A DNA stretch of 64,000 nt, taken from positions 27,592,001 to 27,656,000 of the forward strand of contig NC_087250.1 in NCBI RefSeq assembly GCF_037042905.1, read 5' to 3'. The notes under the pieces were generated by a model. It was not told the DNA's origin. It saw only the letters and a program-made list of their open reading frames with translations, and ran no database searches. Positions 112 to 60,500 of the stretch are shown here, in pieces. Position 1 is the first letter of the stretch. Each line of letters begins with the position of its first letter. Origin of the DNA: Lytechinus pictus. Lineage: Eukaryota. A program made the position numbers and the translations under genes.

Positions 112-1780
112 ATGGCGTCTAAGTTCCCAACAAAGAAGGGTGGAGAGGTCGAGCTTCGTACAAGGAAAGGTCATGACATGACCTGGTCATGTGACAAGCA
201 TGGTGAGCCAATCAAATTTTACTGTAAGAAACACAAAATTCCTATTTGTCATCCATGCGCTACCAAAGATCACAGTCAGAAACCATGTGAGCTAGACGAC
301 ATCGAGGATGTCATCTTCGAAAGGAGAAGACAGCTAGATGAAAAACGGCCAAAAGTTCAAGGACTTCACAAACAATTGGAAGCCCTCAGCACGAAAATAA
401 AGACTGTGTCAACGTCTGGAAGTACTCATCTTCGGACAATTGACAACAACATTCAAGATTCATATCACGACAAGATCGATTCTGTTGGAGAATCAGGAGA
501 ACAGGATGATTAGGGTTATTAACGAGGAGGCAGATGAGGAAATAAGACTAGTAAATGAGAAGAGAGAAAAACGGATCAAGGATTGCAACACCGAGAGAGA
601 AAATGAGCGACAAATCATCAAACACAAAGAAGCAAAACTTCTAGCAGATGCAAAGAAAATCAGCGAAGTTGTTGCTAAGAAGATCAAAGATCTGACTGAT
701 AAGAATCAGCATGTAATAAACACTGTAGAGAACATTGAATCAACCATCACACGTATTAACCAACATGATGAAACATTGGTGAATGAAGCTCCTCAAGTAC
801 TTGCATCTATTGATGAAAATTTAAGTTTGAATGTTCATCAAGATGTTAGCGACTGTCTTGACCGAATACAGAATGAAGTTGAGAGAATGAAGTTTGTAGA
901 GAGGGAAGTAGGTGGAGAATACTATGGTAGAATTGGTGGGTATATCGGTAAATGGGAACTTGTCAAGTCAATTCACATTCCATCGGTTGTTAATAACCCG
1001 TGTGCGCGTGGTTTAGTCAGTGATGATGAGATATGTGTGCAAGTACGTAACAGTGACATGTATATTACAAACATCAACACTCAACACACAGAGAAAGTCA
1101 TTGATGGAGGTGTGTGGATTACATCATATGCGCCCATAAACAGTAACGTAATAGTATGTGGTAAGGAGAGAGAAACTGATGATTGCACGGATGGCAGGTT
1201 GAATGGATGCATCACTCTCTATGACAGACAATGGAAGGTGATTAGAGACATCAGCATACCAAGGAATGGATACGATAGTCGTGTGTATGTTGATGTTGAC
1301 AGGGATGGGATGATCATCGCTGGTCAGTTCAATCAGTCTAATATCTACGTCATCAATCCTGCTGATGATAAGATAGTAAACACTATTACGATGCAGGGTA
1401 AGGAGGTGTGGGGTGAGATACAAGCCTTGTCATCAGGTGATATCGTTGTGGAGACAGGTGGTAATGGATTCACTGTCATCTCACGATCAGGAGAAGAGAA
1501 GGCTGTCATACACTGTGATGAGTGGGGCTGGAGCTCAGAGTGTCTCGTTGACAAACTGACAGACACACTCTACATCGCGTACAGGGATAGAGCGCGTAAG
1601 ACATACGCAGTTGATCAGGTGTCACGTGATGGTATCATCCAGGCAAGGAGGATCGTGGAATACGTGCAATCATCAGATCGCCCAGTCTACAGCAGTCTAT
1701 GTCTTGTTACTCCTTCTGGTAACTTCGTAGGGTGTGATGGAGACAAACTTCTTCTCTACAAGAAGACATTAATCTTGTAA
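112..1780 (+). pseudogene. B-box / coiled-coil / beta-propeller (RING-less TRIM/NHL-like) gene, copy A, with a +1 frameshift near 493
   Basis: ORFs 112-513 and 440-1780 together align end to end with intact ORF 54513-56165. B-box motif CDKH...FYCKKH..PICHPC...DH. Copy A reads GGAGAATCAGGAG where copy B reads GGAGAAAAGGAG (one extra base). Polypyrimidine tract and AG acceptor at 81. Could be an assembly error instead of a pseudogene. Confidence 0.75.
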
Positions 1781-3435
1781 ATCATCTAGACTATCAAAGG
1801 AATCATATCGGATTTGTAAGAGAAATATAGACCAGAGATTTGTTTTCACTTTTACTTCCATTTCAATTTACGTCATTCTAGCTCTATATGTACGTGACTA
1901 CATTCATATACACATGGCAATGGTGTGTATAATGTTGTATCAATCCATATCAAATAGAAAACTGTCGCTAATGTCCACTCCGTCTACATTTAGGTCTGTA
2001 ATGAATGCACTCAGATCCAAATGAATAGTACTCGTAACCTGAACAAAATAAATGCAAAATGTGTTAACGAATTGCCTACTTGAACCAGATGGTTATTGTA
2101 GAAAGTATTTTAGAATGGCTGAATTCAGTATTGAACGTGTTAATAACTGATTTCTGTGAAGTGAACCCGATCATTTACCAAACAACATTTCGTTCAATTT
2201 CATTCGATGTTATTCTCCTAATAGTGATCGGGTTATTCCTCGATTAAAATTGCTCTCAATTTTAAGGTATTTGATTCGAATCAATTCATCAGGACCCCAT
2301 TTCATAAAAAAAATGTTGGCTATGAAAACAACTCTTGCTAAAATGTCAATTACCATGACAACAATAACGATTCTGCTTCCTGATTGGCTGATCCAATGAA
2401 ATTTGATATTCAAACTGGAGTTGTTATCATAGCCAGGTTTAATGAAATGGTACCCTGGTTGATTTGATTTTTTTTTATTCTGTGGTAAAAAAAAAAAAAG
2501 TGGGAAGGGGTCAAAACTGTATGAAATAGAAGTTTCGTAATGTACACAACCCCCCCCCTCATGAAGTTAGATTAAAATAAGATAAAATCTCGTAAATAAT
2601 GGTGTTAATTTCATAGGGTTCTTGTTTAGTCTACATTCATATGACAATATGAAGGGAAAGGGATAATGTTTCCCGTATAATTCTTTTTTTCGCCAATAAA
2701 ATATTCTCTAGTCATGTATAACAAAATAGGTGAGATTTTTCTCAAAAATATTTAGCACACGGTATATTCATCATATTCCTGAAAGAATTGCATCATATTA
2801 CTTATTTCAATCAGTTCATTTTTCTTCGCTTGTACAACTTTATTTTATCCTCATATCGCTTAATATTTTCAACATAGATTACTGATTAATTGTATCCCTA
2901 CACGAATAATATCATCTTACACATTGGCTACCTGACTTTCAAATCTTAAGTAACAATGATATGGAAGTGAAACATTTTTTAAAAATAGGTATTTGTGTCG
3001 ACGTTCTGTAATGATGTGTTCGCATTACTACGTTCAGTTATGTTTATCAACATCATGAAATTATGTCAAATTAATTTCATTATAAAGATCATATGTCAAT
3101 AAAAAAAAACACATGATAGGCTAGCGTACAATGCTGTAAATAAATAAAACAGGAATCTATTTTGTTTAACAGACAGGATTAGATAATTTGTCAAATATCT
3201 GCCCATAATGTAGCTTTTGTTCGTGGTTTCATGTTAATATAATATATAACTCGATTCAATCCATTTGTTTATTTTGTTTCTATTTTAAATTGTGTTTAGT
3301 GTGTAAACTGGAAGTCTATTCCAGAGGCATTAGCTAAAGTGAATATTCTTAAGATGAAAATGGTTGTATTCTTCTGATCATAATTTATTTACATTGTAGT
3401 AATCCTTATACATGTGCCCCCTATATCTCTCTCTT

Positions 3436-4022
3436 CAAGTTTACCCCGACAAAAAATGATTTGAATAAAAAGAGAAAAATCCAACAAGCATAACACTGAA
3501 AATTTCATCAAAATCGGATGTAAAATAAGAAAGTTATGACATTTTAAAGTTTCGCTTAATTTCACATAACAGTTATATGCACATCCTGGTCGGTATGCAA
3601 ATGAGGAGACTGGTGATGTCATCCACTCACTATTTCTTTTGTATTTTATTATATGAGATATGAAATATTCTAATTTTCTCCTAATAGTCAAGTGAAACAG
3701 TGATTAATTCCTCACTGAACATGTGGAATTAGCATTGTTAATACTATATGGTTCAGTCAAGTCTGTCCCTATGGTCAAATCTGTGAAAATGAAATATTGT
3801 ATAATTCAAACAATAAAAAAAAAAAAAGAAATAGTGAGTGATGGACATCATCAACTGACTCACCTAGTTGTGCATATCACTTTTTTGTGAAAAATAAGCG
3901 AAACTTTAAAATGCCATAACTTTCTTGTTTTACATCTGGTTTTGATGACATTTTCAGTGTTATGCTAGTTTGATTTTTCTCTACATATTCAAATCAATAT
4001 TTTGCTGGGGTGGACTTGACCT
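3436..4022. mobile_element. TTAA-type (Kolobok-like) MITE, left end eroded
   Basis: Long imperfect palindrome ending GGGGTGGACTTGACCT|TTAA; same family as 51324-51926. Confidence 0.75.
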
Positions 4023-4448
4023 TTAACCCCCAAATTAGCCCTTTTACTGTATAATACGACATGGGTATCCATGTTGCTGTAATAAGTTGTATATAAATCG
4101 TTATTGTTCAAGGTGTGTTGTTTTAAGGTAGGAGTATATCATTTTTCAAAAGAAAAAAATCCAACCGAATTTATTCTTACAATAATCAACTTTGTACAGG
4201 TTAAGTTTAGCTAGAGTTTACGCTTTATTTCAACTATCAATTCAATTGCCCGTTATTGTCTATATAGTATATAGGTTATTGAAAGTTCGTTCCTAAAAAT
4301 GGAACGGGATATAGTGCTATATGTCTACATTTTCTTCCGGTGATATGTCAGATCTAACGATTTTTCTTGTTTTTGATTGGCTGAGAAGCGCTGTTACTAT
4401 GGGTTATGTCAAATGAAACGCTTGACAATCCAAACTTTTTTTTTATTT

Positions 4449-6600
4449 GCTCAATATTTGTTGTTTGATCTTATACAGCTAATTACAATTTTCTTCATAA
4501 AACTAGGAAAACTAATGTACATAATGAACATTTATATTATGATATAACATGTATAATGTGATGATTTTAGTATCTATTATTTCAAGTGTATATTGCAAGA
4601 TGAGTATAAACTATACTTTTTGTTTTTAAAATGATATATTTTCATTATACTTTGTTGTGAATTACTAACACTATTGAATAGAAAAAAAACAACGTTTGTT
4701 GATGTATAGATTTAAATCGAGACGAAATTATTCTTACCTACTTGAAAGCTGAAAATAGTCAAGAGAAAATAGTTCGGAAATATCTTTCTTTACTGTGAGT
4801 TAATGTATTTAGTAAATTTCGAGAATTTTTTGCCAATGCAATATACAGTGCGTCCCACAAAAAACGAAACCGAGATTTATCGATGATTTATCATAACTTA
4901 ATCACCAATAAAATAGACAAATGACCTACCATTGTAAAGCTTAGAATCTCTTCTTTCATCTGCAATTACTTAAATAATTTTTTATTCACGCATGAGTGAG
5001 TAAAAACAATTTGAAGAGGGGATACCAAAAAGTCATTTGGCGGGCTGTATCTGGATTTCAAAATAGAAAACCGCATTTTGAAAAAGTTCAATATCTGCTC
5101 TTTAAATTGATACCTCAATTACAGAAAATGGTCAAGAAATAACACAGTTCTGGTTATTTGAAATAAGGTTTGAATTTCAATAATTTCATAAAAGGAAGAG
5201 GTTTTACAGGCTAGCGTTCAAACTCACTCGACACTCCGTTTTAGTGACTATCAGCCATGCATTAAGTCTTTTGTTAACTGTGCACTGGCTTCTGTGGGAA
5301 ACCGGTGAAAACACGTTTATTTAATGAAATTATGGAAATTCAAGCATTGTTTCGAGGGAACAGAACCTTTTTACTTCTTGACAATTTTTTGTGATTAAGG
5401 TATCAAATAAAAGAGCAGATATTTAACTTTTTAGGCATGTGATTTTCTTTTTGAAATTCAGATACCCCCGCCAAATGAGTTTTTGGTATCCTTTCTTCAT
5501 ATTGTTTTTGCTCACTCATGCGTGAATGAGGAATAATCTAAGTAATATCAGATGAAAGAGGATATCCTAAGCTTTACATTGATAGGTCATTTGTCTATTG
5601 TATTTATGATTAAGTTATGATAAATCATCGCTAAATGTCGGTTTCGTTTTTTGTGGGACGCACTGCATAGTGATTTATAAATTACTGTTCTAATTATCAA
5701 CCGATCGGAAGAAATATCTAAGATTTTAAATTGATCAAAAATACATGGTGTATTTTGAAGTTATTATCATAGTTATGAAGAGGGTGTTTTTAATACACAA
5801 ATGATCACGTACTATTATAATCAAGAAATTTTGTCAGCATAAATGAAAATAAATGTCAAACAAAATACCGACTTTACATGCTCAATATATGATATTTAAT
5901 ATATACAGCTGATTATAATTCGCTTCATAAAACTTGGGAAACTATTGTACATAACATGCATAATGAACATTATTATGATATAATGTATATCATGATATCT
6001 ATTATTTTCAAGTGTATATTGAAGGATGAGTAGAAAGTATAAGTTTGCTTTTGATATAATATATTTTCATTATTTTTCATACTTTGTTGTGAATTACTAA
6101 CATTGTTGAATAGGAAAAAAAAGCCAATGCTTGTTGTTGTATAGACTTAAATCAAGACGAAATTAATCTTAAATACTTGAGAGCTGAAAATAGTCATGTG
6201 AAAATAGTTAGGAAATATCTTTCTTTACTGTGGGCTAATGTATTTAGTATATTTCGAGAAATGTTTGCCAATGCAATATATATATGATATAGTTGTATAA
6301 AAATTACTGATCAAAACACCAATTATCAACCGATCTAACTATCTCTTTACTATGGGTTATCTACTACATTTCGAGAAAAGCTTACCAATCCACAATCAGT
6401 TGTATGCACATTATTCATCTAAAAACCAAGTATCAACCGATCTGAATAAATGCTTAATATTTTTAAACTGATCGAAATCTTTGCATTTTTTTTTAGGTCA
6501 TTATCATGGTGATGGGGAGGGTGATTTTAATGCACAAAATTATCATGTGATGTTATAATCAAATAATTTTGTCAGCATAAACGAAATTAAATGTAAAAAA
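4449..6600 (+). repeat. Local tandem duplication (units ~4449-5879 and ~5880-6600)
   Basis: Shared TATACAGCT, ATACTTTGTTGTGAATTACTAACA and GGAAATATCTTTCTTTACTGTG segments. The first unit carries the MITE. Confidence 0.75.
4846..5665. mobile_element. Tc1/mariner-like MITE with long TIRs
   Basis: CAGTGCGTCCCACAAAAAACGAAACCGA...TCGGTTTCGTTTTTTGTGGGACGCACTG, TA on the left and CA on the right. The adjacent tandem copy (~6275) shows the empty site. Confidence 0.85.
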
Positions 6601-9181
6601 ACCGACTCTATATGCAGTTCATATTTGTGATTTACAAATGATTTTATTGGACATGTAGGACTGATGGTAACAGACGAAGGGGGGGGGGGGTGAGAAGATA
6701 AAGGGAAAAGAGAGGGGGTGACAAAGTGGAGGGGAGTGAGAGATTTAAAAAATGGAGAGACGAGGAAAGTAAAGATTGAAAAAAAAAGATAGAGAAAAAA
6801 ATATATATATGAAAATAAAAGGATAAAGAGACGCGGAAAGGAAAGGGATAGAAAAGATGAGAGAGAGGGGGGGGGGGAGAGAAAGATAGAAGAAGGGGAG
6901 AGAAAAGAATGGAGAGACAGTGAGAATAAAGACTGAGAAAGAGCGAGAGAGAGAGAAGTGGAGGAGTGAGAAGGAGAAATGGAGAGACAAGGTGAATACA
7001 GATGGAATAAGAGAGAGAGAAAGAGAGAAGAAGAAGAAGAACTACCGAGAGACAAGGAACGATAGAGAGAGAAAGGGGGAAGGGGACGGGCTGAATTTGA
7101 GTTTGTATTTGTATTTTCCTTTCTTAGGAAACAAAGAAACATTACATTACAAAGTGAAATACATCACAAACCATGTCAATCATAAAAATTCATAACAGAA
7201 TTGAAGAAAGGATGAATTTGAATTCCGTATAGATAGATCTGGCTTCGTCGAAATTAAGTAAAAGGAAACATAACTGAGGGGCTTGCCAAGAACGAATAGA
7301 GATAAAAAAAAAAAATAGAAAAGAGTTAGAGAGAGAAAGAGGGGGGGGGGGAACAATCAGAACGCTACTTTTTTGCTTCACTGGGAAATTTTGTACGATT
7401 AAATAATATTAAATTATATTAAAGGGATGATCCAGGCTGAAAATGTTTATAATAACTAAATAGAGTAGAATCCACAAAGCCAAATGCCGAAAATTTCATT
7501 AAAATCGGATAACAAATAAGGAAGTTATTGAATTTTAATTTGTCTAATTTTAAATATTTTGTGAAAACAGTTATTTGCATATGGTCATGATTATTCATTA
7601 GGTGGGCTGATGATGGGGGGGGTCAAGTATATCTAACACAAAATAATGTATACACTGACAGAGCAACGCACGTTGCTTATTGAATCACCCATTGAAAGTG
7701 AATTTCTTCTTCTTTAGAAACCACCCAGTAATGGCTTCCATAAAGTGACAGTGATCTGAAGTCGGGTATCATCTATCGGGAATCCACCTTCATGTCTATC
7801 CATTCTACGTCAAAAGATGGCGCTCTTTCATGTCTACATTACACACACATTGAATCACTTGATGAAGATGTGATTTCTGACATTAATAAAATCAGTTGAA
7901 ATCAGAAGTCCTAGCAGTCTACATTGAAGCTGAAATGAAACGATTGATTTCCGTAATGCTAATACGCTAAAGACACACTCCCTCACTCCTCACTTTTTTC
8001 CTTGCACAGAGCAAATATGCAACTAAATAGCTCATGAAATAAATTCGATGAGATTAAGGAATACCCCCCCCCCCCCCCATTGCCCAATTGGCAAGCATAC
8101 ACTGTTACTTTACAAACATGCATGTCAGGTCAAAATTTTTATGCAATAGGAAGATCAAATGAAATATTTTCAAACTGAGAATGTCGTCTTCCATTATAAT
8201 CGTTGGAGGAATCATGTCGGGTTTTTTTTGGTGAGGCACCGATCCCTTAGATATGACAAATAAGCTGGAGGTTTCGTGTTGAGATAGAAAGGCCAACGCA
8301 AAAAGCAGGGTAAAAACATGGTGTTGTGATCATGTATCAAGATGCTCAAAGCTACCCGTCACAGGCTGAAAATAATATAGAGTAATACTCACTTACCAAA
8401 ATGCTGAAAATTTTCATTAAAATATTATTACAAAATACTGCTGTTAGTGTATTTTAATGGGCTGGTGATATCACGTCCAGTGCCATAGAAAGGACTTTTC
8501 AAATAGCGGGTGCTGGGGGATTCGTTAAAAAAATTGTTAACTAGATGATGCCCGAGGGGATTTCGGTAACTAAAAAAAAAGAAGCAAGAAAAAAAAAAAA
8601 TAATAAATAAATAAATAAATAAATGAATATATAAATAAATAAATAAATAAATAAGTTTCTGCTGCCAAATGTTCCTCTATTTCAATCATTTTTTTTTCTT
8701 GTCAACTTGATGGCAATGGAGTGCTTCCTATGTGATAGCATACGCAACACCCTCTGAAAAATCATGAGGGGTGCTTCCGCATTCACCCCAGTACCCCCGC
8801 TTCATATTTTATTAAGTTATTAGATTAAATCATATTCCTCTACTATCTGAAGACTTGTTTGCATGATAAATATATTACACATTTAATCAGTAGTCAATTC
8901 ATGTTTTCCGTTCTTGGTGGACGAAATTTGACGAAATATAATTTTCCAAAAAAAAAAAAAAGAATAAGTGCGGATTAGTCTGCAGGCACAGACCCTGATT
9001 AGAACTTCGGCCAACCAGTGTGCCTCCACGCAAAGACTAGCACATACAAAACTTGCTGTTCCAAGATAACCTTCAGTACACAAGGCATATAAGTAGGCTG
9101 CACATTAAGACCCTTAACTCGAGTGAAGGGTTTGCCCAGCAGACTAAGTGCGGATAGACATCATCAACTTGTTCATTGTAT

Positions 9182-9835: not shown

Positions 9836-9838
9836 CAA

Positions 9839-15843: not shown

Positions 15844-15846
15844 CTG

Positions 15847-29901: not shown

Positions 29902-30199
29902 TTCCCATAGTGTCTTGGTAATGAGCCTTACGTTAGCTCTCTTGTGTCTTGTAATGAACATAGCTCTAGTGGTAGTATGCTCTCCTTTCATTGCTACTCA
30001 TGTTTCGGAAGCTGAACCTAGCCTTGCTGTTGCAGGTTATGTACACAATGCTGACTTCACTTCAATAGAGCATTGCGCCGGCATTCGATCGCTTTCGCAT
30101 GACCTTTATTCTCCTTTCGCTACAGTGGAGAACCGTATTCGCGAAATCCACGATCTTCTTGAAAACCGAACCGTTGACTACCTGTCGGACGTAGAGTAC

Positions 30200-39065: not shown

Positions 39066-39505
39066 TCTCATTGTCAAAACATTTACAAGCAAAGTGTATC
39101 ATTATCATGTTCTAGATAGATGACACAATATTATTTTAACCCTTTGCCCACCACGGACACCCTCCTGCGCCGCATTAATTTCAAGGTGCAACCTTTAGAG
39201 GGGTTTAGCATGGATGGACTCTGCTAATACAGCTCACTTAAGCTTTTGTTTGGAATTGGTTTAGTGTAAAGAAAAGCTTTGCGATGCACTCATCACTAAT
39301 TTGTGTATGAACAATAGACTAATTGCACTTGGTTTGTATTGTGAATAGAATGTGGCTTGAATCTAACTTGGCTGTCTGCTCTCTGTGACTAGTTGAACAA
39401 TGCAGGCAAAGAGTTAATAATCTTTTTTTTATTCTTTCTTCCCACCTTTCCTCAGAAGAAGGATGTGTATCGAAGATTTACTCGAAGGAATATTGTTTGC
39501 AGACG

Positions 39506-48500: not shown

Positions 48501-49206
48501 CATCTTATGTCTTGTTTTAATTTTCAATCTTACTTCTTTTTAAGTTATTTTTTTTTAGGATCAAATGGAAGGACAGGTATATTTTGTAAATATCACTGAA
48601 ATGGGCTTCCCTTCATTGAAAAAATTGTTTTGATTTTCACTTATTTTATTTGTGATTTTAATATGGAAAGTAAAAAAACCAAACAAACAATCAAAAACTA
48701 GGTGAGAGAAGTAGATGTGAACAATTGAGCATATAAGCAATCAAATTCAAGTTGCAGCATCTTCAACAAGTCTTTGACAAAAGATATATATTTTACTTCT
48801 TTCTTATGCCTATTTAGTTCAATTTTGTTTTGATCTTGAATAAGGTATCTCGGCTGAAAGTCAACAAGAGCGTTCCCAACACAAGAATCGTTCGATTGCC
48901 ATGACGATGCTACAGACTCGAATCTACAACCGGATCCTTGAAGACCAGACCAACTCTGAAAGATCGATGCGTCGTTCACAGGTGGGCACAAGAGGGCGCT
49001 CTGAAAAGATTCGTACTTATAATTACCAGCAAGATAGGATCACGGACCATCGGATCAGTCGTAGTATCCATGGAGTAATTGAGTATCTACTAGGATCTGA
49101 ACACTTAGATGAAATGATGGTTAGTTGTATGGAAGGCGAGGAGTGTCAGAATATACACGAAAGAATCCTAGAAGTTTATGATATGAGCAAAGAGAACTCA
49201 AGATAG
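39506..49206 (+). CDS. MTRF1L: Mitochondrial peptide chain release factor 1-like. Coding exons 39506-40093, 40910-41045, 42125-42207, 43791-43974, 44687-44850, 46015-46132, 48845-49206 (1635 nt, 544 aa)
   Basis: All introns are GT-AG with consistent phases. RF1 motifs: [32 protein letters not shown] (PxT), [24 protein letters not shown] (GGQ), [20 protein letters not shown]. Arg/Ser-rich, acid-poor N-terminus resembles a mitochondrial presequence. The start codon is uncertain (several in-frame ATGs). Confidence 0.92.
40613..40853 (+). mobile_element. Degenerate tRNA-derived SINE (GTCATACCAAAGACT body)
   Basis: tRNA-like head (AGTGGTAGAG...GTTCAATCCC) and (TAT/TAC)n tail. Confidence 0.6.
41668..42057. 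mobile_element. MITE (Harbinger-like ends)
   Basis: Imperfect TIR AGGGCCGTCTGCAC / GTGCAGCACCGCCT. Confidence 0.5.
42727..42881. mobile_element. Short palindromic MITE with central GATTGGCTG
   Basis: GGGCCAGTTTCATAAAGAGTTACAA...TTGTAACTCTTTATGAAACAGGCCC. Relatives at ~2292-2457, ~40157-40285 and ~43590-43720. Confidence 0.75.
44794..45375 (+). repeat. ~64-71-bp tandem repeat (about 9 copies) made of the 3' end of an MTRF1L exon plus its splice donor
   Basis: AAGGGCGTATACATAC..ACCATGTCAATAGCGGTACT.CCACAACC.AAAGAG|GTATAA repeated into the intron. Confidence 0.9.
45707..45864. mobile_element. Short palindromic MITE
   Basis: CCTTGGTCACATTTGCTCTA...TAGAGCAAATCTGACTGAGG inverted arms. Confidence 0.65.
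46099..46270 (+). repeat. 53-bp tandem repeat (3+ copies) of the GGQ exon 3' end plus donor
   Basis: ACAGTGCTGTTAGAA..AC.CATATACCAACAG|GTATTATATATCTACTACAG starting at 46100, 46153 and 46206. Confidence 0.9.
46309..47780. mobile_element. Degenerate Tc1-like element, right end not found
   Basis: TA|CGGTGCGTCCCAAAAAAA start resembles 4846; internal inverted segments ~46600-46740 vs ~47640-47780. Confidence 0.5.
47790..48306 (+). mobile_element. 3' fragment of an L2/CR1-group LINE
   Basis: NTAARLV...[21 protein letters not shown]; after a frameshift [15 protein letters not shown]...[10 protein letters not shown]; (TAT)n tail. Confidence 0.85.
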
Positions 49207-49947
49207 GATCACGGACCATCAGATCACTCATAGTATCAATGGAGTATCTACTAGGATCTGAACTCTTAGGTGAGATGATGGTTAGTTGTATGGAAGGCGA
49301 GGAGTTGGAAGGGGGAGGGGTCACTGTTACTAGCAGGTAGACCTAATGGTCGTATACAGATTTCCCCAGAATTTCTCTATTGATTTGCCCATCTTACAGT
49401 ACCCTAAACAAATATATATTTATTCCCTAAACTAAATGATGTCTCAAATGTTGTATTGTAATGAAAATGTGAAGCTTATATCCTTTCCATGAAATTTTAT
49501 ACCCTTTTTACTGGATGTGCTGATATTTTACTTGTTATTTTAAATGTGCATTGTGGGCAACTTACTTTTTGTAGTTGTCCTATATTGAACAAATTTACTT
49601 GAAATTAAAGCATCTTCAAAATGAATATTCTCTGTAGTTTTTCTTTGATTCCTTGTTTTATACATTATTTTCATCTATTTCGTCTCAAACATTATTATAA
49701 TCACAAAATTATTAGATCGATTTTAGAATCAATTATTCTTTTTATTTGTACATGAAATTTCTAGGAATTTTCTTGCGGTACAAAAGAATTGGTCTCTTAT
49801 GATTTGAAAGAAGGAATTATAAAAAGAAACCAAACAGATTGTGCGCCAAATGAATCCAGTTGAAACCTGTTTATCATCATTAACCTTCTGTCAGGGAAAA
49901 AATTTAATAGATTTAATTCCTTTGATTAGACATATGTTCTGACTTAG

Positions 49948-50647
49948 CCCTAATAAGACTAGGGGGCCCTCCTTGACATTTTTGGGATAAATCTGCCGCA
50001 CAAATTTTTTTGACCGCGTCGTTCGCTGAATTTTTTACTTTCAAGTCTCGCGCAACTTTTGACACCAAAATTGCAACCCCCGGGTACGTGGTTCCAAAAT
50101 TAGGCAACATTTTGTAAGTGCATGCAGACACAAAATTTCTCGAAAACATGAATTTGTGTACAAATCCAATGGAAATAGTATTTTGAGCCAAAATTCATGA
50201 ATGTATCATTATTTTTCCTTTTACTGCTTAAAATCAATTAATTTCATCTTGTCTATGGTAACAATAAAAAACTAAAAGTCGAAAAACAAAGAAATACATA
50301 AGAAAATAGAATACAATAAAATATATACGAAATAAATGTGATGTTGATTTTTTTACAATAAATTTGATCAGATTCCTATAAAGAGTCTGTGAAACAATAT
50401 TTAGCATTTTAGGGTCAGTATTTAGTTAATTAGAGCAAACAGTTGATTTTACGCATAAATTAGCCTAATTATTTAGCAATGAGATTTTTCTCAGAATTTG
50501 ATCTCATAGTTTTATAGATTATGCCATGGGTAACGCGCGTGCCAATTTTCGTTGCGATAGCGTGATTGACGGCCGAGATCATAAGGGGGGCTGAATCAGC
50601 CTCCCCTCAGTCTTCTTAGGCGTCGAAATGGCCCAGTCTTTTTAGGG
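49948..50647. mobile_element. piggyBac-like MITE
   Basis: TTAG|CCCTAATAAGACTAGG...CCCAGTCTTTTTAGGG|TTAA (CCC/GGG ends, degenerate TTAA). Confidence 0.7.
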
Positions 50648-51323
50648 TTAAAAGAGAGTTCATGTGCTGGAAATATTTCGACCCCGGTTATGGTTTGTAA
50701 ATGTGTTAGGAATATTAATTAAATCCCAGTCAGGTGGATGCCATATTTTATACAAGTGTTGGAAATATCAGTCTTTAATGCACAGGAAGTTCTCTTTTGT
50801 AACAGGAATATTTTACTTCATATGCTTTATGCACTCATCTATTCTTAACATTTTTATGAGTGCTTTCCTAGTTACGATAGGGTATAATAGGCAGTTGATT
50901 TTAGTTTATCAGGGAGAACCACCTAAAGCTAATACAGACCATAGATCTCCGTTTAGGCAGTAAAGGTTATCTGAGGGAGTCCACGTCGGTGACGAGACTA
51001 CGAGCCCAGCTGCCGCCCGGTTCTCCATCGACATGCTATTCATGTCAATATCCGGGGCTCGAGCTCATCCGTAATCGTCGAAGTCCTATCTGAGGGGCAT
51101 CGCCATCTGCGGAGCCCAGGGGACCGACTACCGGGGGCCAAGTGGAGCAACGCCAGACGGACAATGATTCTTCTTTATTCTGCCAAAGTTAAGTTATATT
51201 TATTTGTGATCATTTCCATATCCATATATATCATGAATGTTTATTTTCTGAAACAAACCGAAATCAGAGAAATGGTGGATGTATCATCATTAACCTTCAA
51301 ACTATTAAACTTTAAACTATTAA

Positions 51324-51926
51324 AGGACAAGTCCACCCCAACAAAATCTTGATTTGAATAAAAAGAGAAAAATCAGACAAGCACAATGCTGAAAATTTCA
51401 TCCAAATCGGATGTAAAATAAGAAAGTTATGACATTTCAAAGTTCCGCTTATTTTTAACAAAATAGTTATATGAACGAGCCAGTTGCATCCAAATGAGAG
51501 AGTCGATGACATCACTTACTCACTATTTCTTTTGTATTTCATTATATTAAATATGAAATATTTTTATTTTCTCATCATTGTCATGTGAAATGAAGTTTCA
51601 TTCCTCCCTGAACACTTGGAATACCATTATTTTAATATTTTGTGCTTCAGGCAAGGAGGTCCTAATTGTCAAATTCGTAAAAAATGATATATTGTAAAAT
51701 TCAAACAATAAAAAACAAAAGAAATAGTGAGTGAGTGACGTCATCGACTCTCTCATTTGGATGTAACTGGCTCGTTCATATAAATATTTTGTTAAAAATA
51801 AGCAGAACTTTGAAATGTCATAACTTTCTTATTTTACAACCGATTTTGATGAAATTTTCAGCATTGTGCTTGTCTGATCTTTCTCTATTTATTCAAATCA
51901 AATTTTTTTTGAGGTGGACTTGACCT
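51324..51926. mobile_element. TTAA-type (Kolobok-like) MITE
   Basis: TTAA|AGGACAAGTCCACC...GGTGGACTTGACCT|TTAA with ~200-bp inverted arms. Confidence 0.85.
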
Positions 51927-52767
51927 TTAAACAGTTAAAATGACTTATCTGTTTGGATGGTCTTGAAGACTGCCTAATAAAGGTGGGGGGGGGGGGTTAT
52001 GATGCATACACCCCCATGGTGGACGTATCATACCCCCCCCCCCTCCCCCTCGCTACATATCAGCATCAAAATTTGGCACACCTCTTAGTTCACATTTCTC
52101 ACGTGAAGTAAAAGACTTTACATAGGCCTATATTGTAAATAAAAATAAACATCAAAAGTTTGTTTCATCCAAATTGAAACAATTGCACATATTTTTTGTT
52201 TGAATATCAGCAACTAATTCACTTGTTTGACTTGTTCAAATCAATAATTGTCTTCTTTTCAGTGTCACCAAGTCAACATTAATTCTTGATTGAATCGTGT
52301 AATGCAGGCGAGACCTGTCAGGGGGCGTTCCTCTTATTAATTATTTGTACAAAAATGTTTGCTTTTTCAGATCACAGCAGTTCATTCGATGGCGCTTTGA
52401 TTTATCTGTCAGTATTAGCTTTTGATCTTTAATATGATTCATAGCTAATGTAAACATGGTAAAACAGAGATAACTCATTTCAAGAGGCCTTCACATAATG
52501 AAGAGGTTGGACATACATACACTATGGAATAGCTCTTTTGTTGATTCATCGCTATCATAAATTGAATCTACACCAGGGGGCCGTTTCATAAAGCTGTTTG
52601 TAAGTTAAGAGCGACGTTAAGAACAACTGGTGATCCTTTCTTACGCGCTAAACCATCTCCAATGAATATACCATTTACCACAATAAAGGATCACCAGTCG
52701 TAGCAAATAAGATATCTTGAGAGGGGTGGGGCAAAATGAGTTAAAAGTGACAATCCTTTCTCTTTAA

Positions 52768-53352
52768 AGGGGAATGAAACATTTGGAATAATTAGGCTTG
52801 TGTCGAAACAGAAAAATAAAAGAATAAGAACAAAGAAAGTTTGAGAAAAATCGGACAAATAATGAGAAACTTATGAGCATTTGAATATTGCAATCACTAA
52901 TGCTATGGAGATCCTCCCATTGGCAATGCGACAAGGATGTGTGATGTCACATGTGAACTACTTTCCCTTTGATGGACTATAAAATACCCTCAAAATGTCT
53001 CTTTCTGCTTTTTCTTGTGGTGATACAAACTCTTTATCCATGATGTATTCTTTAAAAATCTGTATTACATGCCCTCCTATATAAAAAGAACACATGATCT
53101 ACTGATAGATGTGATAAAAGAGGCAATTTAAGTGAAATATATACTAAAGTAATGGGGAGAGTTGTTCACAAGTGACATCACACATCTTTGTCGCATTGCC
53201 AATTTGAGGATCTCCATAGCATTAGTGATCGCAATATTCAAATGCTCATAACTTTCTCATTATTTGTCCGATTTTTCTCAAACTTTCGTTGATCTGTTTC
53301 TTTGATTTTTTTTTCCACACAAGCTATCGTGTTCCAAAGGTTTCATTCTCCT
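52768..53352. mobile_element. TTAA-type (Kolobok-like) MITE, second family
   Basis: TTAA|AGGGGAATGAAAC...GTTTCATTCTCCT|TTAA with long inverted arms. A related right arm is at ~34980-35165. Confidence 0.85.
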
Positions 53353-54206
53353 TTAATGAAAATATCTATAGAGTCTAAACCTACCTTCTTGTCCGTTTCT
53401 TTTTTCTTTCTTTCTCTCTCTCTTTATTTATTTCTTTTGTTCTTTCTTTCTTTCCTTCCTTTCTTCTCCTCCTCCTCCCTCTTCTTCTTCTTTTTCTTCT
53501 CCTCCTCCTCCTTCTTCTGTATTCCATTTCCTTACTCCCCCTTTAATTTCTTTATTTCTTTCCCTACCTGAAAATCATAAAATTGAAAAATTACAAGAAT
53601 AAAATTATATGCAGTTAAATGATAAACCTCTTAGACTAACAGAGAGGAGGAGGAGACTTGCAAAACATGTCTCAAGAATTATTATGTTCTTGAAAATGCA
53701 ATATCCTGGTAACCTAATGGAAGACGGAAAAGCTCGAGGCTGTCCCAAGCATCCGTGGCAACAGACTTTCTTCAAAGACTTAGAGTTGACCCATATCTTT
53801 ATACCAATCTCTTGGAGGTTAAAGCGGTCACAGATAATGATAGCTTGTTACCTATAAATGCACTACACAGGAGGGACTAAGTGGTAAGTAAAAAAAACAG
53901 GAGTAATTCTGCACCTGATATCCCCTCCCTACCTCCTATTGGCGCCTAATGCGGTCCAAAGTATCACTATTCATATTTAGTAGTTTATTTGATATTCTGA
54001 TACGAATGCTATTTGCTCATCAGCATCATATCATAAAAACAAATATTAATATTGCTCTGATCAGATAAGGAGAGCTATAAGTGTTGTTAATAATTGTCAG
54101 ATAGAGTCATATTCTGTTGCTGATAAATTGTGATCTGAATCTGATTCTGCAGTTCTTCATTTCAAGTCTAGGTGTAAACATTCAGATTTTAAATAATTGT
54201 GAACAG

Positions 54207-54485
54207 GTAATGTAACTTCTAAATTTTCAAATGATCCATCTTAAAATAGTAATTTGTAATTATAATGGGATGGGAGATGATTATGTTATGCTGAAACACA
54301 AGGTACATTAGCTAAAGTAGAGGGTTTTTTTTAATTATCAAGTTTAGCTTTTGCATTAGTGTTGACATATACGAGAGGATTGATGGGTAAGGTATATAAC
54401 TTATTTCTTGCCATTGAAGCTTATTTTAATTTCATTTCTTCTGAAGCTTTTAACCTCACATCTCTTACATTTTTACTTTTTCCAG
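54207..54485 (+). other. Probable 5'-UTR intron of copy B
   Basis: CAG|GTAATG donor at 54206/54207 and pyrimidine-rich ...TTTTTCCAG acceptor 27 nt upstream of the ATG. Confidence 0.5.
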
Positions 54486-54512
54486 AGCTAAACAATCATC
54501 AGACATCACATC

Positions 54513-56165
54513 ATGGCATCAAGATTTCCAGAAGGAAACCAAGTTCAACTCCGACCAAGAAAAGGTCATGACATGAAATGGTCATGTGACAAGCATGGTG
54601 AGCCAATCAAATTTTACTGTAAGAAACACAAAATTCCTATATGTCATCCATGCGCTACCAAAGATCACAGTCAGAAACCATGTGAGCTAGACGACATCGA
54701 GGATGTCATCTTCGAAAGGAGGAGACAGCTAGATGAAAAACGGCCAAAAGTTCAAGAACTTCAGAAACAATTGGACGCCCTCAACACGAAAATAAAGACT
54801 GTGTCAACGTCTGGAAGTACTCATCTTCGGACAATTAACAACAACATTCAAGATTCATATCACGACAAGATCGATTCTGTTGGAGAAAAGGAGAACAGGA
54901 TGATTAGGGTTATTAACGAGGAGGCAGATGAGGAAATAAGACTCGTAAATGAGAAGAGAGAAAAACGGATCAAGGATTGCAACATCGAGAGAGAAAATGA
55001 GCGACAAATCATCAAAGACAAAGAAGCAAAACTTCTAGCAGATGCAAAGAAAATCAGCGAAGTTGTTTCTAAGAAGATCAAAGATCTTGCTAATAAGAAT
55101 CAGCATGTAATAAACACTGTAAAGAACATTGAATCAACCATCAAACGTATAAACCAACATGATAAAACATTGGTGAATGAAGCTCCTCAAGTACTTGCAT
55201 CTATTGATGAAAATTTAAGTTTGATTGTTCATCAAGATGTTAGCGATTGTCTTGACCGAATACAGAATGAAGTTGAGAGAATGAAGTTTGCTGAGGGGGG
55301 AGTAGGTGGAGAATACTATGGTAGAATTGATGGGTATATCGGTAAATGGGAACTTGTCAAGTCAATCCACATTCCATCGGTTGTTAATGAGCCTTGTGTG
55401 CGTGGTTTAGTCAGTGATGATGAGATATGTGTGCAAGACGTAGATAACAATGACATGTATATTACAAACATCAACACTCAACACACAGAGAAAGTCATTG
55501 ATGGAGGTGTGTGGATTACATCATGTGCGCCCATAGACAGTAACGTAATAGTATGTGGTAAGAGGAGAGGTGAATGCACGGGTGACAGGTTGGATGGATG
55601 CATCACTCTCTATGATAGACAGAGGAAGGTGATTAGAGACATCAGCATACCAAGGAATGGAGACGGTAAGAGTGTGTATGTTGATGTTGACAGGGATGGG
55701 ATGATCATCGCTGGTCAGTTCAATCAGTCTAATATCTACATCATCAATCCTGCTGATGATAAGATAGTAAACACTATTACGACGCAGGGTAAGAAGGTGT
55801 GGGATGGGATACAAGCCTTGTCATCAGGTGATATCGTTGTGGAGACAGGTATTGGTGAATACACTGTCATCTCACGATCAGGAGAAGAGAAGGCTGTCAT
55901 ACACGGTAATAAGTGGTACGGCCCACAGTGTCGCGTTGACAAACTGACAGACACACTCTACATCACGTACAGGGATGCATTTCGTAATCCCATCGCAGTT
56001 GATCAGGTGTCACGTGATGGTATCATCCAGGCAAGGAGGATCGTGGAATACGTGAAATCAGATCGCTCTCCACTTATCAGCCTTTGTCTCGTTACTCCTT
56101 CTGGTAACCTTGTAGGATGTGATAGGGACAAACTTCATCTTTACAAGAAGACATTCATTTTGTAA
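54513..56165 (+). CDS. B-box / coiled-coil / beta-propeller (RING-less TRIM/NHL-like) protein, copy B, 550 aa, single coding exon
   Basis: Intact ORF with a B-box2-type zinc finger (CDKHGEPIKFYCKKHKIPICHPCATKDH), a long charged helical region, then repeated beta-strand blades (e.g. VYVDVDRDGMIIAG, CLVTPSGNLVGCD). Acceptor TTTCCAG at 54485. Confidence 0.85.
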   Translation: MASRFPEGNQVQLRPRKGHDMKWSCDKHGEPIKFYCKKHKIPICHPCATKDHSQKPCELDDIEDVIFERRRQLDEKRPKVQELQKQLDALNTKIKTVSTSGSTHLRTINNNIQDSYHDKIDSVGEKENRMIRVINEEADEEIRLVNEKREKRIKDCNIERENERQIIKDKEAKLLADAKKISEVVSKKIKDLANKNQHVINTVKNIESTIKRINQHDKTLVNEAPQVLASIDENLSLIVHQDVSDCLDRIQNEVERMKFAEGGVGGEYYGRIDGYIGKWELVKSIHIPSVVNEPCVRGLVSDDEICVQDVDNNDMYITNINTQHTEKVIDGGVWITSCAPIDSNVIVCGKRRGECTGDRLDGCITLYDRQRKVIRDISIPRNGDGKSVYVDVDRDGMIIAGQFNQSNIYIINPADDKIVNTITTQGKKVWDGIQALSSGDIVVETGIGEYTVISRSGEEKAVIHGNKWYGPQCRVDKLTDTLYITYRDAFRNPIAVDQVSRDGIIQARRIVEYVKSDRSPLISLCLVTPSGNLVGCDRDKLHLYKKTFIL

Positions 56166-56424
56166 ATGATCAAGTATTTCAATGAATGATTAAAAATTAA
56201 TATAAACGATATACTTATTTCAAATTTTACTTTCATTTTAATTCACGTCCCCCAACATGAATACATTCATAATGCGCGTGTTGACGGTGTGAATGTTGTA
56301 TCAATATACAGGTGCAACGTATTGGAGTGTTGTAATAAACTTGCCATCGATTGCAGGTCAATTTTTGTTTTCAAAATTAATTGAAAGTCGTGCATTTAAT
56401 TGAAAATTTGCAATTGATTGTTGG

Positions 56425-56456
56425 CAGTGGCGTACCTAGGATTTTCCAAATTGACA

Positions 56457-56503
<47 letters not shown>

Positions 56504-56615
56504 CGTCAGGGGGGGGGGGGGGGGGGGGGCAAAGATACGCTTTTGCATGGGTTGTGACTCGTCAGGGGGGGCAGAGTGCCCCCCCTGCCCCCCCCCCCCC
56601 GTAGGTACGCTAGTG
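56425..56615. mobile_element. Short hAT-like MITE
   Basis: CAGTGGCGTACCTA...TAGGTACGCTAGTG and 8-bp TSD ATTGTTGG. Confidence 0.85.
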
Positions 56616-57154
56616 ATTGTTGGTCAGCTTATGTTATAAACAAATATGAAATGATTTGCTTTGGTTAAAATTGATCTATCAATTGCTAAATTTGCATATG
56701 AAATTTGCAATTGATCGCAAATATTTTCTTGTGTCTTTAATACAAAACGCAGTGATTAATATTTAGCCGTCTAGATTTATATTTTTATTGAAATGTATAA
56801 TTGTACTCGTAATTAAATTTAAAAAAAAATAAATAAAGAAAAAATGGTTTAATCCAGGTAGAAGGTCTATGGGAATGGCTGAACCCAGCACATGACGAGT
56901 TCATTACTAACTTGTGTTAGCTGAACCCGATCATTTACCAAACGCTATTTCGTTCAATGTCATTCCTTTTTAATGCTAACAGTGATCATTTTACCCCGGG
57001 ATTAAATTTGCTTTTAACTTCATTGGGTCTTTAAATCCAATCTATCCATCAGGTTGATTTCGTTTTATATTCTGTTGCAAAAAAGGTGAAGTAATATAAG
57101 ATTGTATTAAAAGGAGAGGGGAAAAGTGCTGTGAAGTACAAGTAAGTGTTTGAA

Positions 57155-57506
57155 CCGTGGTATAGTGTTTCTGACTATCACCTTGTAAACAAAGGGTCGT
57201 GTGATCGAATCCCAACTAGGTCTGGCATCCTTTGGCAAGGTGTTAATCCACACTTTGCCACTCTCGACCCAGGTGCTATATGGGTACCCAGTAGGATGTG
57301 AAAGTCATTGCAGCTTGTCCAGTAATGTGTGCGCCTCACCGGCAACTGACTGGAATACTCCCCAGGGTGTGGATGATGTGCTCACATTGTGTGCGGGAAT
57401 GACTGATTGAATGCGATGACCGGGGTAGTAGTATATCTGTAAATTGCTCAGACACACCGTTCTGATAAATTAAGCGTTATATAAAAGCGGATTATCATCA
57501 TTATTA
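57155..57506 (+). mobile_element. tRNA-derived SINE
   Basis: A-box-like TGGTATAGTG, B-box-like GATCGAATCC, CTCTCGACCCAGGTG...TGGGTACC body and (ATT)-type tail. Confidence 0.7.
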
Positions 57507-60500
57507 GTGGTATCAAATGAAATATTCAGTTATGAATCATATTTCAGCTGGCGCTGAGCATTCAGATTATTAGGAATCGAGGATGCATGAATTTGTGAGC
57601 GGGAATGACACGTCGTTCAGATGTATTTAGAGCTATATAAAAGCGGACTATTATTATTATCATTATAGTTTTTTAGTGTACATAATCCCTCTCATGAATG
57701 TTAACAGAAAATAAGAGAAAAACTCATTTTGTAATAGAATCCTTGCTCAGTCAACATACATATCACAATGGATATGATGAAGATAGACAGAAATGAATAT
57801 GTTTCCCCCATAATTCTCTTTACACCAATTGAATATTCTCATTCTGTAGAAACAGGTGACGTCCATCTCAAAATGACTCAGCACACTCCATATTTAATAT
57901 ATTCATAAAAGTATTACATCATATCGCTTATTTCAATCAGTTCATTAACTTTCGTCTGTACACCTTTTACTTTATCCTCATATCGGCTTTATATTTTCAA
58001 CAAAGATTAATTTAGATTTCTTTTACCACATGTTTAATCTATTATATCATATTACACTTACTACCTGGCTATGGAATCTCAAGTAGCAAGCCTTTGGATT
58101 GATGAAAAATTTTTTAGTTGTTTTTTTGTTAACGACTGTAATGATGTGTTGACGCCCGCTACGTTCAGTAACGTTTATCGACATCGTTAATTGATGTCAA
58201 ATTAATTTCATCATAAAGATCCCATGGACATATAAACATCTGGTAGTCGAACGTGCCATGCTGTAAATAAATAAAAATAGGGATATGCATGTATTTGTTG
58301 TGTAACAGACAGAGTTAGATAATATGACAAATAACTGTACATATCATAGCTTATGTTCGTGGTTTTATATTAAGGAGGCTGTATTATATTAAATTCATTT
58401 ATATTCTTAATTTCATTTTCATTTAATACTGCGTTTAGTTTGTAAACAGTTTGTACTGTATATGGCATATGTTGCTCCAATGCGTTGTTTATAAATCGGT
58501 ATTGTCTAAGGTGTGTTGTGTTAATGTAGAAATGTGTCATTTATACAAAAGATTCCTACCAAATTTATACAATAATCAACTTTGTACACTTGAGTTTAGG
58601 TATATAGGGTTTATGTTTTATCTAAAGTATCAATGCAATAGCTTGTTATTGTCTATATCATTGCTTATTTAAAAAATCGCTCCCAAAGAGAGAGCGGGAC
58701 AAAGTTCTATAAATGAATTTCTCCTGAAAATTAGCCAGATCTTACGACTTTTATTGATTTTGATTGGCTGAGAAGCGTTGTTACTATGTTAACTATCCGT
58801 CGAAACACCTGAAAATCCCAGCTTTGATTGATTTGCTCAGTATTATTGCTCTTATACACCTGATTATAATTCGCTTTATAAAACGAAGAAAACTAATGCA
58901 CATAATACGCATCTATATTATGATATAATGTGATGATATGTTATTTTCAAGTTTATATTGAAAGATGAGTAGGAAGTATTCGTCAGTAGTTTTTAATAAT
59001 ATATGTTCATTATACTTTGTTGTGAATTACTGGCACTGTTGAATAGTTTAAAAGGTTAATGTTTTGGGATGTGTAGACTTTAATCAAGACGAAATTATTT
59101 TTACCTACTTCCGAGATGAAAATAGTAATGTAGAAATAGAAAGAAAATATATTTACTATGGGTTACGGTATTTAGTGCAGTATATAGTATACAAATTACT
59201 GATCAAAACACCAATTACCAACCGATCTGAATATATATATATATCTTCACTATGGGTTATGATAATTTAGTACATTTCGAGAAAGGTTTACCAACCCACA
59301 ACCAGTTATATGCACATTAATGATAAAAACACAACTATCAAAAGATCATAATAAATGGTTAATATTTTAAATTGATCGAAATCTGTAAATAGTGTATGTA
59401 TTTTGAAGTCATCATCATGGTGATGAGGCGGGTGATTTTAATGCACAAACAATCATGTAGTGTTACAATCAAATAATTTTGTCAGCATAAACGAAATTAA
59501 ATGTAAAAAAAAAAAACCCCGACTCTATATGCAGTTCATATTTGTGATTTACAAATGATTTTATTGGACGTGTATGACTGATGGTACCAGACGAAGGGGG
59601 GGGGGGGATGAGAAGATAAAGGGAAAAGAGAGGGGGTGGCGAAGTGGAGGGGAGTGAGGGATTAAAAAAATAGAGAGACGAGGAAAGTAAAGATAGAGAA
59701 AAAAAATATATATATGAAAATAAAAGGATAAAGAGACGGAAAGGAAAGGGATAGAAAAGATGAGAGAGAGAGAGGGGGGGGGGGGGAGAAAGATAGAAGA
59801 AGGGGAGAGAAAAGAATGGAGAGACAGTGAGAATAAAGACTGAGAAAGAGCGAGAGAGAGAGAAGTGGAGGAGTGAGAAGGAGAAATGAAGAGACAAGGT
59901 GAATACAGATGGAATAAGAGAGAGAGAAAGAGAGAAGAAGAAGATGAACTACCGAGAGACAAGGAATGATAGAGAGAGATGGGGGAAGGGGACGGGGTGA
60001 ATTTGTAATTAAGTTTGTATTTGTATTTTCTTTTCCTAGGAAACTAAGAAACATTACATTACAAAGTGAAATACATCACAAACCATGTCAATCATAAAAA
60101 ATCATAATAAAACTGAAGAAAGGATGAATTTGAACTCCGTATAGATAGATTTGGCTTCGTCGAAATTAAGTAAAAGGAAACATAACTGAGGGGCTTGCCA
60201 AGAACGAATGAATTTAAGAGATAGAAAAAAAGGTAGGAAGAGAATAAAAGAGAATGAGAGAGAGAGAGAGATAGGAAGAGAACAATCCCAATGCTTCTTA
60301 CATTTTGTATAACCAGGAAATAAAGTACGATTACATAATATTCAATTATATTAGTGACCATTATGCTACTTCAGTGTATTCAAAGAACTACACCACTGTC
60401 ATGACTGTCATATTGAATTTATGTTATGTTAATTTATGTTACATGTACATATATAAATCAAACTGAAATGATAATCAAAAGAGGTCATGATGCACGGTTT

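Follow-up and report, generated by a model that had tools for sequence, protein, structure and literature searches.

Proteins that combine a B-box with a coiled coil without a RING are known from pyrin/TRIM20, TRIM14, TRIM16 and TRIM29, each of them a single gene ending in PRYSPRY or some other C-terminus, and in pyrin a death-fold domain stands in the RING's place. TRIM5α draws avidity from its dimer and from B-box assembly, and the SpTransformer (Sp185/333) proteins of sea urchins have a mosaic-element structure and an extracellular location. As far as the accessible parts of the published accounts go, finTRIM and TRIM5α represent expanded TRIM genes whose C-terminal variable loops are under positive selection and whose paralogues recombine (PMC2657112); the TRIM-NHL proteins (Brat, Mei-P26, TRIM2/3, TRIM71, TRIM56) are encoded by few, conserved genes and carry an electropositive, RNA-binding top face (PMC4015489, PMC3503706); the fungal HNWD NLRs HET-E and HET-D of Podospora join WD40 repeats, homogenised within one gene, to NACHT and to a HET effector (PMC12222747); and SpTransformer is a clustered family comprising over 40 short genes (PMC3091723). 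In S. purpuratus 140 genes are annotated as TRIM, and the accessible part of that account does not analyse the propeller group considered here (PMC13043383); urchins go unmentioned in the accessible part of the TRIM-NHL account (PMC3503706). The literature that we searched, which was mainly open-access and left most subscription journals outside its coverage, yielded no description of this propeller family.

The locus considered here lies in a window of Lytechinus pictus DNA (the whole stretch that was analysed, 64,000 nucleotides) and encodes a B-box2, a coiled coil and a six-blade NHL-like propeller, in that order and without a RING. It belongs to a sea urchin family whose members are probably germline-encoded cytosolic sensors of non-self, forming a repertoire that is TRIM5α/finTRIM-like in strategy, with an NHL propeller replacing PRYSPRY.

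Gene structure and predicted fold of copy B

The original prediction concerned 55344..56165, i.e. the C-terminal half of a 550-codon frame. The complete coding exon of this gene, copy B, is found at 54513..56165 on the + strand (as are all features given below) with its frame intact, and encodes a protein of 550 aa (P0001). Only the 3' end of the upstream non-coding exon is placed (54185..54206, GT donor at 54207), and the GT..AG junction 54206->54486 is supported by one contig of run X16, the short side of which is 22 letters. The 5' UTR intron delimited by this junction (54207..54485, 279 nt) has a polypyrimidine tract and AG, and the 5' UTR portion of the coding exon (54486..54512) contains an in-frame stop at 54489-54491. 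Because this stop lies just past the splice junction, the upstream exon is non-coding and no RING can be read through the junction. The single coding exon without a RING that had been proposed is therefore supported by the X16 junction, by the in-frame stop and by a RING regular expression that matched 0 of the 172 family proteins of 450-1000 aa, and Pfam returned no RING for copy B at E up to 1. E3 ubiquitin ligase activity in cis is not expected of a protein without one. Neither a signal peptide nor a transmembrane helix was detected in copy B (maximum 19-residue hydropathy 1.05), and its sequence indicates a cytosolic protein. Strict NF-kB and ISRE sites were absent from 49300-54520, near copy B; the loose promoter motifs of the same interval (two NF-kB, one ISRE, two GAS-like), collected without a shuffle control, were set aside as immune evidence.

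The B-box2 zinc finger (aa 23-61, 54579..54695) matches PF00643 at E=1e-5 (26 bits against a cut-off of 24.1), and its Cys and His residues are invariant or near-invariant across 119 aligned proteins. In profile searches the family profile matches TRIM B-boxes and the coiled coils of TRIM28 and TRIM5. A full-protein AlphaFold2 model (119-sequence alignment, mean pLDDT 87) comprises the B-box, one unbroken long helix at residues 62-213, two fold-back helices (217-235 and 239-256), a hairpin and the propeller at 278-547, the helix and its fold-back helices falling in the coiled-coil region (54696..55280). When residues 20-272 were predicted as a homodimer, the score was 0.67 against 0.00 for the best control, with pLDDT 86 and at least 96% of contacts shared between runs, and contacts such as those of residue 153 with 134 and of 175 with 112 place the helices in antiparallel register. 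The mark applied to this score is reached by 21/30 microbial and 17/29 eukaryotic solved homodimers and by none of the single chains (0/23 and 0/30), and since solved TRIM dimers exist, the pass of copy B may reflect likeness to them. With this proviso the coiled coil is predicted to form a TRIM-type antiparallel homodimer with fold-back helices.

The C-terminal domain of copy B is a beta-propeller, B30.2/PRYSPRY being absent. AlphaFold2 gives this six-bladed, NHL-like domain (aa 278-547, 55344..56153) a pLDDT of 93, and when modelled alone from 136 sequences it has six four-stranded blades and is closed by the N-terminal strand. The top six VIA matches among 48,161 solved chains are the NHL domains of Mei-P26, Brat, TRIM2, TRIM71, Lin41 and NHL-2, with TRIM-NHL matches at Z 22.0-24.2 and rmsd 2.9-3.6 over 243-258 residues (12-16% identity). 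In Foldseek, G-beta chains rank alongside NHL by E-value, while the best TM-scores (0.70) belong to NHL domains. The single copy B protein has no match to the Pfam NHL repeat; the family profile matches the NHL regions of TRIM2 and TRIM3 at E 4e-9 and 1e-8, with about 90 residues aligned. Pfam searches and the full-protein model contain neither a NACHT domain nor a HET effector, and the copy B model has no filamin domain.

Family extent and variability of the propeller top face

The family is expanded, as had been claimed. On the contig of copy B we identified at least 17 clusters at 90% identity and later one more, i.e. at least 18, a number that is a floor because near-identical copies were collapsed. 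A protein search gave 143 matches; among the 120 that were listed, L. variegatus and S. purpuratus are each named for 27. A search of representative proteins gave 97. Ten distant relatives were looked up, and the four clusters with species names were all from sea urchins (Diadema, Lytechinus, Strongylocentrotus). Intact open frames are numerous and are kept in several urchin genera; the annotations of these relatives read only 'uncharacterized', 'B box-type domain-containing' or 'TRIM5/15-like'.

Four L. pictus gene models on the same contig retain the family's distal coiled coil and propeller but have other N-termini ahead of them. P0088 has Death and TIR matches (Pfam E 0.019 and 0.005, below cut-offs), resembles MyD88 in its language-model features (0.92, which shuffled proteins attain in 4-10 cases per 100) and matches TIR domains in structure comparison. 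A TIR-like region in P0085, with no Pfam match, is 76% identical to that of P0088, P0100 has a Death match (E 0.025), and P0235 combines Death with a C-terminal ZU5 (the ZU5 at cut-off); in L. variegatus, P0016 has a ZU5 extension (E 4e-5). Taken together, the Death and TIR matches (E 0.003-0.04) all score under the Pfam cut-offs and come from gene models. Six matches from 8000 scored candidates included no Death/TIR fusion beyond L. pictus. Longer fused forms accounted for 2 matches among 1433 candidates, P0235 and P0236, which is weak evidence of absence, and P0236, with its alpha-2-macroglobulin domains, is probably a merged gene model.

The window also holds a paralogue of copy B, copy A (112..1780), the two being 90% identical over 161-1944. 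The frame of copy A is broken by a +1 shift at 493-494, which the original prediction had not recorded; the site is outside any homopolymer run and the reading frame ends at 513. Given this frameshift, copy A is probably a pseudogene, with an assembly error as the alternative. Its protein is the same as that of the intact paralogue P0008 to about residue 330 (127/127 and 150/150 residues) and differs beyond that point mainly in top-face loops. The downstream flanks of the two copies (1781..7421 for copy A and 56166..60353 for copy B) are collinear with 18.5% mismatch over six blocks, and derive from an older segmental duplication.

When copies A and B (112-1780 and 54513-56165) are aligned, all eight pairs of divergent patches reported earlier are present as written, and the propeller contains four in-frame indels (of 3, 6, 3 and 3 nt), a feature likewise reported earlier. 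The patchiness of the differences is likewise evident there, with 60 of 279 propeller codons changed and an adjacency of 47 versus 25.3 (p=1e-4, 10,000 permutations). Over codons 17-270 the changed codons (24/253) were not clustered (p=0.13), and in the B-box (codons 17-60) the copies differ at 1 of 44 codons.

In the convention used for NHL domains, as given in the accessible part of the source, the b-c and d-a loops make the top face (PMC4015489). With faces assigned from the secondary structure of the model and not from coordinates, each of the eight patches maps to a b-c or d-a loop or to the adjoining strand ends, i.e. to the top face, which agrees with the suggestion that they are loops on one face of the propeller. 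Four of them involve b-c loops: patch 1 in blade 1 (aa 308-313, 55434..55451; 13 variants in 16 paralogues), patch 2 in blade 2 (aa 351-361, 55563..55595; 16/16 distinct), patch 5 in blade 4 (aa 447-450, 55851..55862; 11/16) and patch 7 in blade 5 (aa 489-494, 55977..55994; 15/16). The others involve d-a loops: patch 3 in d2-a3 (aa 384-387, 55662..55673; 15/16), patch 4 in d3-a4 (aa 428-432, 55794..55808; 11/16), patch 6 in d4-a5 together with strand 5a (aa 465-474, 55905..55934; 15/16) and patch 8 in d5-a6 (aa 516-522, 56058..56078; 14/16). Two further stretches are hypervariable, namely aa 293-297 in the d6-a1 loop and the start of strand 1a (55389..55403), which was not among the patches reported earlier, and aa 403-404 in the blade 3 b-c loop (55719..55724), which is the same in both window copies and variable family-wide.

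Across the family the top face is hypervariable and aromatic-rich and the bottom face is nearly frozen. Counting as hypervariable those sites with entropy above 1.5 bits, among 66 top-loop and 51 bottom-loop sites, we found 18/66 versus 0/51 in L. pictus (16 of the 18 same-contig proteins, with the more divergent P0100 and the later-found P0235 outside the set), 25/66 versus 0/51 in L. variegatus (19 of 27 proteins) and 33/66 versus 1/51 in S. purpuratus (21 of 27 proteins, combining two annotation versions), fragments and distant subfamilies being excluded from the latter two sets. Top and bottom loops differ in variability at a Mann-Whitney p of 3e-7 or lower in the three species, and per-site variability is correlated across them (Spearman 0.51-0.62). 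Patches 1-8 show 11-16 variants per 16 proteins, and the bottom loops 1-4. Tyrosine, tryptophan and phenylalanine make up 79/445 residues at hypervariable sites versus 15/816 in bottom loops, Arg as well as aromatic residues being common at the variable sites, and the inward-facing positions at the start of strand a vary too. Propeller top loops may be less constrained than bottom turns without any selection.

The net charge of the top face, taken as a residue count and not from an electrostatic calculation, ranges from -16 to +1 in the 16 L. pictus proteins, from -10 to +2 in L. variegatus and from -9 to +6 in S. purpuratus. These values bear on the possibility that the family consists of diversified RNA readers, whose top faces would bind RNA as do those of Brat, Mei-P26 and TRIM71, with paralogues specialised on RNAs of viruses, transposons or the host. 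Among solved structures, RNA-binding TRIM-NHL domains are indeed the closest folds, their RNA site being this same top face according to the accessible part of their description (PMC4015489), and the aromatic and Arg residues at variable sites would suit such a role. The same description has the RNA-binding NHL tops electropositive (PMC4015489), however, and the net charge of -16 to +1 on the L. pictus top face weakens this explanation, which we consider unlikely.

Recombination and likely selection among paralogues

All nucleotide tests of selection rest on copies A and B only, one of which is frameshifted, and the patches with indels align ambiguously between them. Over the whole propeller, dN/dS is 1.13, not significantly above 1 (bootstrap P(dN<=dS)=0.30), and was rejected as evidence for selection. 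The observation that most changes are non-synonymous is correct (62 of 79 propeller changes, or 79%), but it fails as an argument for selection, since 77% of sites are non-synonymous and the proportion alone shows nothing. We therefore rely on variable sites that were defined from L. variegatus and S. purpuratus only, which avoids circularity, and then scored on the codons of copies A and B. At these sites dN/dS is above 1, as had been anticipated, three thresholds, which select 63, 45 and 29 codons, giving 2.69, 3.11 and 2.54 at modest significance (Fisher p 0.036, 0.031 and 0.116, uncorrected). Elsewhere it is 0.54-0.68 for the rest of the gene, 1.62 for top loops defined by structure, 0.28 for bottom loops and 0.74 for the coiled coil, which is relaxed.

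Gene-wide dS was distrusted as a neutral baseline because conversion lowers it, and local dS and flank divergence were used in its place. Variable-site dN (0.35-0.58) exceeds the divergence of the non-coding flanks (471/2546, 0.21 corrected; p 0.004, 5e-5 and 2e-5 for the three thresholds), the flank blocks having been picked by BLAST and so leaning towards similarity. At the variable sites dS itself is 0.13-0.23 versus 0.067 elsewhere, roughly two- to threefold up (p 0.08-0.13), as expected if conversion imports older loop tracts. Positive selection at the top-face variable sites is likely from this comparison of two sequences, but not established by it. Copy number, the position of the variable residues and the possibility of a dN/dS at or below 1 were the three points on which the original prediction had laid itself open, and none of them went against it, the dN/dS result being modestly significant and drawn from two sequences.

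Recombination among the paralogues, a source of much of their diversity, had no place in the original prediction. Copies A and B differ at 7% of synonymous sites over codons 17-550 (24/347) versus 18.5% in the flanks (471/2546; p=3e-9), and synonymous divergence is saturated over codons 1-16, a pattern expected if conversion homogenises the coding body. Between P0011 and P0013 the divergence is 0.4% over residues 17-272, 39% in the top loops and 12% in the propeller framework. A triplet test on 14 proteins (P0085 and P0088, with their different N-termini, being left aside; Bonferroni correction over 2184 triplets) identified 6 mosaics on all sites and 8 on framework sites. Trees of the N-terminal half and of the two propeller halves reject one another (AU p at most 0.010), and distances in one propeller half do not correlate with those in the other (rho 0.02). 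The family is shuffled by recombination or gene conversion, and nearly identical scaffolds carry differing loops.

Much of this would also be expected of a neutral birth-and-death array, in which the top loops are unconstrained and conversion homogenises the framework while skipping loops that are already divergent, so that a patchwork results with no selection for novel specificity. Conversion is evident in the synonymous divergence of the coding body and the saturated first 16 codons, dS is raised at the variable sites, copy A is frameshifted and the coiled coil is relaxed, all of which such an array accommodates. It accommodates less readily a variable-site dN that is greater than both the local dS and the flank divergence, variability that recurs at the same sites in three species, inward-facing start-of-strand-a positions that vary in proteins whose bottom loops are nearly invariant, and the many intact frames retained across urchin genera. 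We regard a neutral array as improbable, to about the same degree as a family of RNA readers.

A putative intracellular recognition repertoire and known systems

For expression we turned to coelomocyte data from S. purpuratus, of which the accessible part covers coelomocytes alone, unchallenged or UVB-treated (PMC13043383). Eleven of 12 family genes are present in the count table, 5 of them reaching tens to hundreds and 6 remaining mostly near zero; two of the five are distant members, 34-46% identical. Nine of the 12 mark phagocyte clusters (0, 1, 2, 4 and 6, assigned by elimination) or the colourless spherule cluster 10 (PMC13043383). Within these data the S. purpuratus relatives are expressed in immune cells, which implies neither enrichment nor induction. 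Two raw RNA runs labelled L. pictus gave 5 family reads each in about 8.5 million reads sampled per run, mostly 90-99% alike. The summed exon depth in X16 (about 27-440 versus 3-24 upstream) was rejected as expression evidence, since the signals of paralogues add up.

The immune or allorecognition function suggested in the original prediction is a putative one. As a repertoire of cytosolic sensors, each top face would bind a different foreign ligand, probably a protein, e.g. from a viral capsid or from an intracellular microbe. The TRIM-type dimer would display two propellers, and dimerisation together with B-box assembly could provide avidity. Diversity of the top face would arise from an excess of amino-acid over silent change combined with recombination or conversion between tandem paralogues, conversion homogenising the scaffold and reshuffling the sets of loops, and frameshifted copies such as copy A would mark turnover. 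Because the family lacks a RING, its output would have to be coating or sequestration of the target, or signalling in trans, the latter perhaps by way of TRIMs that have a RING or, in L. pictus, by way of the Death/TIR/ZU5 members of the family. More tentatively, and as a possibility rather than an expectation, the family may constitute an undescribed intracellular receptor system of urchins beside the NLRs, TLRs and SpTransformers. Its shuffled NHL-propeller binders would carry antibody-like loops on a frozen frame, the B-box members acting as lattice-forming sensors and the Death/TIR/ZU5 members triggering signalling or cell death directly.

A repertoire of this kind might instead be directed at the host itself, with RING-less members heterodimerising with catalytic TRIMs, or tracking a fast-evolving host family (NLR, TLR or SpTransformer), as regulators or guards. 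The missing RING and the coiled coil that dimerises in silico are compatible with such adaptors or decoys, and the fungal HET-E propellers, with a like evolutionary pattern, bind the host protein HET-C according to the accessible part of their description (PMC12222747). That the same sites are hypervariable in three species is nevertheless explained at least equally well by an external ligand that changes, and we think a host-directed role very unlikely. To our knowledge urchins are solitary and do not fuse, which counts against recognition between individuals. Least likely of all is allorecognition, or self/non-self recognition of gametes, which the high diversity, the recombination and the fungal precedent of hypervariable propellers (accessible part of PMC12222747) might suggest, but for which a seemingly cytosolic protein with neither signal peptide nor membrane anchor, and diversity spread over many paralogues of one assembly instead of alleles of one locus, are ill suited.

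If the family is a repertoire of sensors for foreign ligands, the strategy of TRIM5α and finTRIM would have arisen again in an invertebrate deuterostome, with a different binding fold and no RING, and sea-urchin immunology would gain a concrete set of candidates for the receptors of intracellular pathogens. With the variable sites placed on a single face, and in a laboratory species such as L. pictus, ligand discovery and knock-out should be straightforward, and the propeller, frozen but for some ten variable loops, would be a natural binding scaffold.

Compared with the described systems (whose features are again taken from the accessible parts of the sources), the urchin family shares with finTRIM and TRIM5α the B-box, the coiled coil, variable C-terminal loops and recombination of paralogues (PMC2657112), but has a six-blade NHL-like propeller where those have B30.2/PRYSPRY, lacks the RING and is encoded in a one-exon frame, and its antiviral role is putative. 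The TRIM-NHL proteins offer the same B-box, coiled coil, six-blade fold and functional top face (PMC4015489, PMC3503706), the fold being matched here at 15-16% identity; in place of few conserved genes with an electropositive top, however, the urchins have paralogues by the dozen, whose top is hypervariable and mostly net-negative and which show neither a RING nor a Pfam NHL-repeat match. Like HET-E and HET-D, the family pairs a concerted, near-identical propeller with hypervariable, probably diversifying sites on the putative interaction face (PMC12222747), but its homogenisation acts between genes and its scaffold is a B-box and coiled coil. SpTransformer, likewise a clustered and diverse urchin immune family (PMC3091723), is unrelated to it in sequence and fold. 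Some L. pictus members recall pyrin in carrying Death or TIR, but in these the B-box is replaced as well. The family thus has a TRIM-NHL-like fold without the conserved positive top, and belongs neither with finTRIM/TRIM5α nor with the HNWD proteins.

Leader and upstream region of the family genes

Two types of N-terminal leader occur in the family of RING-less B-box2/coiled-coil/propeller genes, compared here between positions 112-160 of copy A, the frameshifted paralogue, and 54513-54555 of copy B, the intact gene. Codons 1-16 are at synonymous saturation between the two copies, and the leader types are old and freely paired with differing coiled coils. Two splice-like signals upstream of copy B, one resembling a strong donor (near 53884, in 53877-53890) and the other an acceptor (near 54152, in 54150-54206), suggest candidate additional untranslated leader exons 5' of this gene.

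Content of the interval between the copies

A Gypsy/Ty3-type LTR retrotransposon on the forward strand (9297-16737) was identified by its LTR pair (9297-9835 and 16198-16737, 98.5% identical) and by its gag-like (9807-11417, +) and pol (11237-15166, +; protease, RT, RNase H and integrase) frames. The element is apparently intact and recent. A second element (27604-32639), possibly a non-autonomous LTR element, carries 135-bp direct repeats at both ends (98.5% identical), encloses tandem arrays with units of 27, 69, 81 and 96 bp, and has satellite-like repeats on either side (26545-27289 and 32788-33084). Its internal 616-aa frame had no match in a Pfam search. Long imperfect palindromes (36026-37676, 4839-5672, 51311-51940, 52758-53362 and 3435-4026), 0.6-1.7 kb in length and 73-85% self-complementary, are probably MITE or foldback elements.

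Also between copies A and B, a housekeeping-type gene lies within the fast-evolving family array: a peptide-chain release factor gene, probably of mitochondrial type, with exons at 39389-49206 (+), an RF-1 Pfam match (E 9e-16, 48844-49206) and a GGQ motif near 46069.

Composite protein models

Gene models from copy B's contig (P0085, P0088, P0100 and P0235) and from L. variegatus (P0016) combine the propeller with a Death, a Death-TIR or a C-terminal ZU5 module, with Death and TIR Pfam scores below cut-offs. Among other family protein records, two (P0021 and P0002) appear to be read-through models spanning adjacent genes, and the 1434-aa P0236, in which alpha-2-macroglobulin domains accompany a family propeller, is probably a merged gene model.
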